Virus record (IMG/VR): IMGVR_UViG_2518285588_000002
Span: 1 to 64,000 of that record
DNA length: 64,000 nucleotides
Source of the DNA: a virus
Taxonomy: Duplodnaviria > Caudoviricetes
Reading direction: 5' to 3' (one strand)
Shown: positions 27,001 through 30,000 of the stretch, in pieces
How positions within the stretch are numbered: the stretch's first letter is position 1
How the letters are laid out: each line of letters opens with the position of its first letter
Program-made: the position numbers

Positions 27001-30000
27001 CGTTGACCGTGCGGGCCTGCAGCAGCGACGTGCCGCCTGTGGGCGACGATGCCGGGCCGTCCGGGGGCTGTCCCCCTTCCGGCGTTACGGCGGCCCTGAC
27101 GGGCGGTGTGCGCGTGCCGGTGCGCGGCGCTTCGGTGTTGCGTGCCCATTCGCTGTCGGCGCGGTCCGTATCAATGGTGCCGTCCGCGTCCGGCGTGATG
27201 CGCCCTGCGGCGATTGCCTTGCGCACGGCGGCGTCCGACACGCCTCGGTGCCGTGCATAGGCGCGAATTGAAATTCCCATCTGAATCTTGCTGGTCCTTT
27301 TGCAGATAGCGCGTGGCTTCTGTGCAGCACAGCGCGTTCATGTGTCCATCAACACGACACCTCAACCGGAGCACACGATGAGCAAAACCCAAGCCCGAAA
27401 CAACGTGGTCGAAGAGTTGACCGAAATTAAGGAGCAGATGCTCGAACTAATCCAGAGTGCGCGCGGCTTGCTGAAAGCCGGCGGATTGCGCAGCGCGCTG
27501 GATCGTGCCGAGGACTACTGGCTTGCGCAGCTCACGATGGCGATCTCCGACGACCACGGCTACCTCGGCAGATCGGGATGCACCCTGCAGGACACCATCG
27601 AGGAAATCGAGAGCGACGAAAACGAAGAGAACGACTGACAGCTGGGGCGGGACCACCCGCCCTCTCCAACGAAAAGCGCTTGGCTTCTTCCCCGCACAGC
27701 GCGTTCATCACACCACGTTCAAACCACCTCGAAGGACCAACAGATGACCACGCAACAACTGACCCCGGCACAGCACGCGATCCTCGCCTACGCCATCCAG
27801 CACACCGGCGGCAAGATCGAATGGTTCCCCGACAACATCAAGGGCGGCGCGCGCAAGAAGGTTGTCGACGGCCTCGCCAAGCGCGCCCTTATCGCGGCTG
27901 CGGGTACCGAATGGCTTGTCTCAGCCCAGGGCTACGGCGCGCTGGGCTTCGACGCACCGCAGCCGGACGAACCCGCCGCCGACGCAGAAGCACAGCGCAA
28001 GGACGCACGGAAGGCACCGCGCAAGCGCGAGAACAGCAAACAAGCCCAGGTGATCGCAATGCTGCGTCACCCCGAAGGCGCAACGATCAGCGAGATCTGC
28101 AAGGCGACCGGCTGGCAAGCCCACACCGTGCGCGGCGCGTTCGCCGGCACCTTCAAGAAGCGGCTCGGCCTGACCATCGTCTCCGAGAAGTCGGCCGACG
28201 GTGAACGCATCTATCGGATCGAAGCGAAGGATGGCGCTCAGGCCGACCAGTCGGCCTGATGTCGCGCGGGACCGACTGCGATGTCAGCGGTCCCGCATGA
28301 CACCGCAAACAACGCTTGGCTTGTACCCCGAACAGCGCGTTCATACAGGTGTCGCAACGACATCAACCAAGGACACCAACATGGACATCACCACCGCCAA
28401 CTACAACGCCTTCGTCGTCGAGCTCACCGCCCTCACGCGCAAATACGGCGTCGCGCTCACCGCCATCGGCGGCGTCAGCATCGCGGATGAGCCCGGCGAC
28501 TTCCGCAACGTCGTCTACGTCGCCGATATCACCAGTGGGGACCTGTACCCCAAAGACCCCGAAATCTGATCGACCTGCTGCATTGCGGTACCGCCCTCCG
28601 GGGCGGTTTCCGCGCTGGCGCGAAGTAGCGTCGCGTTCGCGATAGGCACCACGCTGCGAGTGCGTCCCCGCGCCACGCAGCATGCGGGGCACTGTGCCCG
28701 CACGCTGCGGAGTGTTTGCTCTCCAGCCTTGGCTTTCGGCTCGAACAGCGCGTTACTGGTGCCATCACAACGACGCCCAAGAAGGAGCACGCCATGACCA
28801 CCACTGACCAGATTCCCACCACCCGCAACGAAGGCTGGGGCTTCTACGGCACGATGAAGGAGCGCGCCGCCGAAGCCTGGCCGCTAGCGATGACAACTGT
28901 CTCCAAGGCCACCGGCTCGTCATTTGAGGCCGTGCGCCTCTTTCTCGACAGCGCATTCGGACGACACTTTGCGGATGACGTCTGCAACGCCCTCCACGGT
29001 GGCCAGACACTTACCGATGCCATCGACTCCACGGCGGCTCTGTGGATGCAGCGCAAATCGAACGGTGGGCTCAGCCACATCTATGGCATCCCGCGTGACC
29101 TGCCCCACCTGACGGCCTTTGTGGCCGCCAGCGAAATCGCCGACGAACTTTCGGCGTAAGCCCCCTAACGCAATGCCGCCCGCGCTGCGGGTGGCGTGCG
29201 TCTACCGGATCAGCGCCTCGCGGACAGCCTGCTCCCCGGTGTATTCCTCCCAACGCCTGACGATCACGTCGGCATACCTGGGATCCAGTTCGATCAGGCG
29301 CGCCGCGCGCGCCGCCTTCTCCGCCGCGATCAGCGTGGTGCCCGAACCGCCAAACGCGTCGAGTACCACGTCGCCCGGCCGGCTCGAATTGCGGATCGCC
29401 CGCTCCACCAGTTCCACCGGCTTCATCGTCGGGTGCAGGTCGTTGCGGGCAGGTCTCTTGATCTGCCAGACATCTCCCTGGTCGCGGTCGCCGCACCAAT
29501 GGCGCTGCGCCCCCTCGGCCCAGCCGTACAGGATCGGTTCGTATTGCCTCTGGTAATCCGCACGGCCAAGCGTGAAACGGTCCTTGGCCCAGATGATGAA
29601 GGTTGACCAGCGCCCGCCCGCCTCGCGGAATGCCGCCTGCAGCACGTCCAGTTCGCTGGAAGACATCGCCACGTAGATACCGCCGCGGCAGTTGGCGATC
29701 GTCGGCGTCAGCGCCGCCAGCAGGAAATCGTAGAAGCCCCCGCCCAGGTTGTCGTTCAGGATGGCCCGGCTCGTGCCGCGCTGCCGCTCCTTGGCCGTAT
29801 TGGCGTAGTTCACGTTGTACGGGGGATCCATGAACACCATGTCCGCCGGCTCGCCCTGCAACAGCCTGTCGTAGTTCTCCGCGACGGTCGCATCCCCGCA
29901 CAGCAGCCGATGCCTGCCCAACACCCACACGTCGCCTGGGCGAGAGATCGGATCCTCGGGCACCTCCGGCAGTGCAAACTCCTCCGCCTGGCCGTCGCCC

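Follow-up and report, generated by a model that had tools for sequence, protein, structure and literature searches.

The analysed window comprises the first 64,000 nt of IMG/VR virus record IMGVR_UViG_2518285588_000002. Its source DNA belongs to the Ralstonia solanacearum complex, one stretch being 99.8% identical to megaplasmid CP021449, and self-BLAST reveals that the contig contains parts of three related prophages, for which Acidithiobacillus phage AcaML1 is the nearest named phage. Between the gene for the terminase small subunit (terS) and two N6/N4 DNA methyltransferase genes, four small genes (86, 171, 62 and 121 aa) stand in tandem on the plus strand, antisense to the late operon. Each is preceded by a copy of a 32-bp motif and ends in a GC hairpin without a U-tract. 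The features in and around the motif-bearing regions are the following:

1-300, minus strand: cassette gene from the family that includes 37986-38276; runs off the contig start
331-362, minus strand: post-lysis copy of the motif, immediately following the lysozyme gene
26744-27280, minus strand: terS (phrog_57), left anchor of the slot
27310-27341, plus strand: motif copy 1, predicted TSS 27348; lies 30 nt upstream of the start of terS, which is divergent
27378-27638, plus strand: cassette gene, 86 aa, no family; swappable cargo of the first slot
27644-27663, plus strand: GC hairpin without U-tract
27677-27708, plus strand: motif copy 2; predicted TSS 27715
27744-28259, plus strand: gene for a DUF3489 protein, 171 aa, predicted C-terminal winged helix-turn-helix; near-invariant array gene and candidate regulator
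28258-28303, plus strand: GC hairpin without U-tract
28313-28344, plus strand: motif copy 3; predicted TSS 28351
28381-28569, plus strand: cassette gene, 62 aa, no family
28570-28725, plus strand: spacer with several GC hairpins; relatives have inverted cassettes at the same place
28726-28757, plus strand: motif copy 4, GTTACT variant, found by position weight matrix (PWM); predicted TSS 28764
28794-29159, plus strand: cassette gene, 121 aa, phrog_8020; confidently predicted helical fold matched by no solved structure; usually the last gene of the array
29168-29201, no strand: GC hairpin separating the last cassette from the convergent methyltransferase gene
29202-30422, minus strand: ParB_N and N6/N4 DNA methyltransferase, right anchor of the slot
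30419-31159, minus strand: second N6/N4 methyltransferase, shorter than in relatives
32238-32651, minus strand: DUF6362 protein with sigma4-like HTH, in a RinA-like position; alternative candidate reader
35965-35996, plus strand: decaying copy of the motif that follows a second prophage's terS remnant; no cassette gene left
36049-36080, plus strand: ninth, decayed motif copy with a DUF3489-type leader remnant, preceding captured foreign DNA
37270-37301, plus strand: motif copy heading the second DUF3489 gene
37336-37857, plus strand: second DUF3489 gene, 70% identical to the first
37911-37942, plus strand: motif copy
37986-38276, plus strand: cassette gene for a 96-aa protein without a family, sharing 78% DNA identity with the gene at 1-300

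All eight copies noted originally were recovered. Seven fit the 32-bp pattern at three or fewer mismatches, compared with none in 100 shuffles, and the eighth, at 28726, scores 35 bits with the PWM (18.8 when left out of it), the best score in shuffled contigs being 7.8. The PWM adds the decayed copy at 36049 and, past the window end, copies at contig positions 71018 and 72772. Seven copies are followed by a small gene with an RBS, at motif-to-ATG distances of 30, 36, 35, 36, 36, 34 and 43 nt, and the four tandem units are arranged as had been described. The hairpins noted at the ends of cassette genes are present, but they lack the U-tract.

The contig shows further features. A 10.9-kb block of head genes occurs twice at 93% identity (window 16498-27341 and contig 60240-71049), both times ending exactly at a motif copy, and a 132-bp repeat (92%; window 31169-31300 and 47939-48070) lies in the cos position of two of the prophages. 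An IS66 element (window 33166-35715) lies where the region of the RuvC-like gene from one prophage meets a terS remnant from another. The methyltransferase at 30419-31159 is about 800 bp shorter than its counterpart in Ralstonia phage YO164_3 and is probably truncated. In the second prophage, two decayed motif copies precede foreign DNA (window 36049-37260) that occupies the first slot of the array; PSI07 carries the same foreign DNA ahead of its DUF3489 cassette, and the same layout is seen in loci L130, L131, L141 and L151. RipT, RipP2 and others have been listed as prophage-borne (PMC3878972).

Scanning of other genomes with the motif, together with the DUF3489 and whole-genome scans, gave a pool of 588 distinct copies, which are related rather than independent and were in the majority first collected using the motif itself. 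An RBS and an ORF follow 545 of the 588 copies. The distance between the two boxes is invariant: 758 matches have 11 nt, which places TTGGCT 17 nt from GTTCAT or GTTACT as originally noted, and no match has 6-10 or 12-15 nt. The final hexamer is GTTCAT in 444 and GTTACT in 103 of the 588 copies.

Several features of this arrangement are those of a sigma70 promoter, namely a TTG -35 box, a 17-bp spacer, a T at -7 (579 of 588 copies), a YR start and A-tracts in the phase of an UP element. The adenine peaks lie at -41/-42, -52/-53 and -63 relative to the predicted start, which is the spacing of the contacts made by the alpha subunit. A YRY centred 7 nt past the final T is found in 91% of the copies, and in 11 of 12 cargo families it reaches 77-100% despite differing leaders, which are about 29 nt long, A/C-rich and unstructured. 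To begin melting, sigma70 captures an A at -11. The motif departs here from the canonical promoter (-11A, usually with -12T), having a T at -11 in 583 of 588 copies, and a consensus sigma70 promoter scan did not find it; gammaproteobacterial variants retain the T, as in Agarilytica (TTGATG, 17 nt, GTTAAT). For comparison, -7T is present in more than 90% of betaproteobacterial sigma70 promoters (PMC8407463), and YRY, a conserved start element of bacterial promoters, at about 31% of bacterial TSSs (PMC12641261).

The GAAC-N5-GTTC dyad noticed at first occurs in part of the copies, without conservation as a dyad, and its proposed role as an operator is not supported, both halves being found together in 300 copies against 287 expected if they were independent, with no compensatory changes. 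Nor is the motif a LexA box (CTGT-N8-ACAG, or a conserved GAAC/GTTC dyad with chromosomal copies), as the spacer bases are unconserved and chromosomal copies were not found. Hairpins with z < -2 were seen at only 15% of the junctions internal to arrays, compared with 2% for first slots, and Rfam gave no match at E up to 0.5. Protein-coding constraint, considered in view of the ORF that contains the integrase copy, was rejected as the main cause of the motif, because third codon positions are invariant and the array copies are intergenic.

Regarding distribution, all matches in four whole genomes and the GMI1000 megaplasmid fall in prophage-sized clusters, where a control pattern gave none, and we therefore regard the motif as a phage element rather than part of a host regulon. 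Among motif-selected loci that hold both terminase and methyltransferase, the array is antisense in 62 of 62, 211 of 212 copies lie between these anchors and DUF3489 is present in 61 of the 62 arrays. Loci picked by protein, without use of the motif, agree with this, since 79 of 80 viral DUF3489 loci and 41 of 51 named genome loci carry the motif. The motif-bearing named loci include Burkholderiales, Rhodocyclales, Nitrosomonadales, Pseudomonas, Halotalea and Nitrospira. In Yuaviruses, distant homologues of DUF3489 and of the 121-aa protein stand behind ordinary -11A promoters, and no motif was found.

The motif has a second context, namely operons of DUF2924 and a serine recombinase, where it is present in 80 of 80 cases, nearly always 26 nt upstream; the contig copy at 72772 is one of these. 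Only 1 of 58 integrase copies has the YRY start, and the integrase copy may therefore be a weaker or differently started promoter. This copy sits in the 3' end of a small conserved ORF (AcaML1 gp5, L372:2985-3176; also L291-L370), which is open in 67 of 67 distinct loci. In the alphaproteobacterial loci L248, L249, L272, L274 and L283, DUF3489 stands directly before DUF2924 and is tied to the integrase operon.

The cargo falls into 39 families among the 588 copies, of which DUF3489, DUF6900 and DUF2924 are labelled, as is KleA/KleC in relatives; the latter, an IncP gene regulated by KorC, occurs as a phage cassette at L061:2732-2950 and in L052. Pfam, PHROGs, NCBIfam and PADLOC gave no function for the cargo of the window. 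Nothing supports the host-takeover or anti-defence role that had been suggested for these genes, PADLOC, NCBIfam and fold searches giving no match; the PADLOC and NCBIfam libraries cover few anti-defence genes, and an anti-defence function is neither supported nor excluded. The 121-aa protein has a confidently predicted fold (pLDDT 93), for which no solved structure matched above Z 4.5 and the Atlas returned unnamed clusters only. The C-terminal domain of DUF3489 is confidently modelled as a winged helix-turn-helix with generic fold matches (Z about 8), while the N-terminal half is poorly modelled and gives no support for a second winged helix. DUF3489 comprises about 15,000 clusters at 50% identity and is named in one paper of the 8.4 million in our literature search. 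That search found no publication on these cassettes, and the motif string was not among the matches listed, which a short term dominated.

We suggest that the motif very likely drives transcription. The TTG -35 box and the A-tracts upstream of it would be where host sigma70 RNA polymerase docks, to start 7 nt after the final T of the motif. As the -10 box is without the A-nnn-T pair needed for melting, a phage-made factor is probably necessary, and it would enable firing by binding the AG(C/A)G(C/T)G block, which is invariant at -17 to -12. Among local candidates for this reader in Proteobacteria, we tentatively rank the winged-helix DUF3489 protein first, as an activator or a repressor. The sigma4-like DUF6362 or RinA-type protein, with a weak sigma4/ECF match (E 0.049), is the sole candidate in common with Firmicutes-type phages, and no single candidate is common to all motif carriers. 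The regulon would combine the integrase operon with short accessory genes, each monocistronic and read in the direction opposite to the late operon, and this combination points to expression in the establishment or maintenance of lysogeny, by analogy to the lambda promoters pI and paQ. In lambda, the CII-activated promoters pRE, pI and paQ are weak, need a phage factor, and drive integrase and transcription antisense to late functions. CII binds TTGC-N6-TTGC around -35 and its promoters keep -11A, whereas the present motif has neither a CII-like repeat nor -11A, and lambda has no cassette array. On balance we favor a class of factor-dependent phage promoters that control the integrase operon and accessory genes and whose repeats double as exchange joints.

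The main alternative is that the copies are plain weak or moderate host sigma70 promoters overlapped by an operator for an array-encoded repressor (DUF3489), which would fire on entry into a new cell and then be shut off, as in the plasmid establishment regulons CUP/ArdK or Reg576. The winged helix of DUF3489, its presence in nearly every array, usually behind its own motif copy, and the KorC-regulated KleA/KleC family among the cargo would fit this, and the logic is the one described in PMC6294495 and PMC5371602. Establishment promoters, however, are strong and near consensus, while the -10 of the motif avoids the canonical pair in every lineage; furthermore, no dyad is conserved and a sister motif (below) persists where DUF3489 is absent, and we consider this reading unlikely. 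CUP (IncN; Delver and Belogurov 1997, in PMC5371602) and Reg576 (PMC6294495) likewise place several short operons each under one conserved element and encode an HTH or RHH regulator among them, and CUP copies recombine to give inversions. The counterpart of that regulator might here be DUF3489, with its predicted winged helix. The plasmid systems differ in lying in leading regions, with active, repressor-controlled promoters and known anti-restriction cargo, whereas the present arrays belong to phages, with no ard-type gene found and no defined operator.

Much less probable is that an alternative, ECF-like sigma factor of phage or host reads the motif with CGTT as its -10. CGTT is placed much as in EcfG-type promoters, 16 nt past the TTG box and 9 nt ahead of the predicted start, and DUF6362 has the weak sigma4/ECF match given above. 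Against this, the -35 is TTGGCT rather than AAC-type, and CGTT varies by lineage, being lost in the CGTG, CGTA, CGAA and TGAT variants; TTG, -7T and UP-phased A-tracts are group-1 features, no sigma factor was seen among the AcaML1 early and late-regulator genes scanned, and copies are missing from host chromosomes.

The second property of the motif is that cassettes are exchanged at it. There are 49 arrangements in 79 arrays, and 27 in 32 close Ralstonia-type loci, where units are also duplicated and inverted, and between relatives homology begins and ends at motif copies. As conditional mutual information was confounded by phylogeny, crossovers were mapped by pair analysis, in which the variable spacer tracks the upstream flank at 0.80 and the downstream flank at 0.70 over a background of 0.40, these spacer values being the informative part since the fall-off beyond the motif stems in part from the filter. 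The spacer follows either flank, and crossovers therefore fall at either box, which fits short-homology recombination rather than a single cut site. Since all the genes have these 32 bp in common, cassettes would be added, removed, duplicated and inverted by recombination within the motif, of the homologous or annealing type. Divergent back-to-back motif pairs 61 bp apart mark inverted cassette blocks (L003:15045-15137; L028, L087, L129, L132, L135, L136, L144 and L148).

The motif could instead be mainly a recombination or nicking site for a phage enzyme, bounding cassettes as in an integron, which we think about as improbable as an ECF factor. Cassette boundaries do coincide with the motif, and in a single case (contig 71018) the junction lies at its last base with at most 1 nt of homology. 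There (contig 71018-72463, L001:8019-9464), judged against an 89%-identical Burkholderia glumae plasmid copy, the motif is fused directly to an S8 peptidase gene at mid-length, the gene being one of an AAA-ATPase/S8 pair, and a large deletion ends exactly at the motif boundary. Crossovers nevertheless fall on either side of the spacer, the motif is not palindromic and its dyad does not covary, the YRY and A-tract phasing would be left unexplained, and the four motif copies of AcaML1 are internal, its att sites being 10-bp repeats at the prophage ends (PMC3826726).

The best reading of the sequences seems to be a factor-dependent phage promoter that doubles as a recombination joint. In this it resembles the PeSL cassettes of the T4-type phages RB49 and phi1 (PMC2839356), where a repeated promoter and stem-loop likewise precede small uncharacterised genes and recombination between copies shuffles the modules. 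PeSLs, however, occur in lytic phages and have working terminators and very strong promoters of the sigma70 consensus type, whereas the present motif has a non-canonical -10, hairpins without a U-tract and temperate cos phages as carriers, also heads the integrase operon, and has no sequence relation to PeSL. Although it would work alike, we do not place it with PeSL or CUP, because it fails their defining consensus promoter. The earlier view of a phage-specific, probably co-regulated promoter heading self-contained cassettes is upheld by the geometry, the prophage restriction, the RBS and ORF downstream and the shuffling, but without the dyad operator; the integrase-operon copy, the exchange joints, the missing -11A and the Firmicutes-type counterpart are additions to it.

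This counterpart was found with a low-GC query modelled on Firmicutes prophages, with a free spacer of 9-12 nt, which partly imposes the conserved letters of the sister motif but neither its spacing nor its context. The spacing is 11 nt in every match among those listed. The sister motif heads small genes (amidoligase, gamma-glutamyl cyclotransferase, DUF4314) between the same methyltransferase and terS, precedes a serine recombinase in 10 loci, and shares one cargo family with the proteobacterial arrays. Its arrays run with the late genes and have no DUF3489; homology of DUF3489 to their invariant gene was considered and rejected on comparison. The two motifs align in register (CTTG, 16 nt, AG(C/A)G(C/T)G), although the register is not certain because the -10 part differs between lineages. 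In Firmicutes-type and Acetobacteraceae copies an A follows the block at the -11 equivalent, but the T comes one position too late and there is no -7T; in no lineage does the main form have the canonical A-nnn-T. It is conceivable, though doubtful, that all of these form a cross-phylum class of phage promoters with an unreadable -10, melted with a phage factor or a phage-laid DNA mark at -17 to -12, and a lysogeny-establishment regulon linking integrase to a self-shuffling accessory array. Also improbable is a methylation-gated promoter, marked on packaged DNA by the late-expressed neighbouring methyltransferases and melting only on incoming genomes. The methyltransferase is the one neighbour common to proteobacterial and Firmicutes-type arrays, and -11T places an A on the template strand; but the integrase and post-lysis copies are distant from the methyltransferase genes, and being adjacent says nothing where an enzyme can diffuse.

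This temperate phage group spans Beta- and Gammaproteobacteria, Acidithiobacillus and one Nitrospira genome, its gene control is undescribed, and related motifs occur in Alphaproteobacteria as well as in Firmicutes-type phages. The motif would predict start sites to the base and define a regulon that includes integrase, and could serve as bait for dozens of small uncharacterised genes whose exchange selection maintains. If it works without -11A, it would offer both a new way of activating sigma70 and a compact orthogonal switch. AcaML1 (JX507079), of the same phage group, has the same antisense block, with three motif copies in the terS-methyltransferase slot and one before the recombinase operon; it differs in its cargo set, and the motif is not annotated there. 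In the Nitrospira prophage (L374:1123), a lone motif copy heads a foreign-looking ORF of 362 aa about 34 kb from the array.
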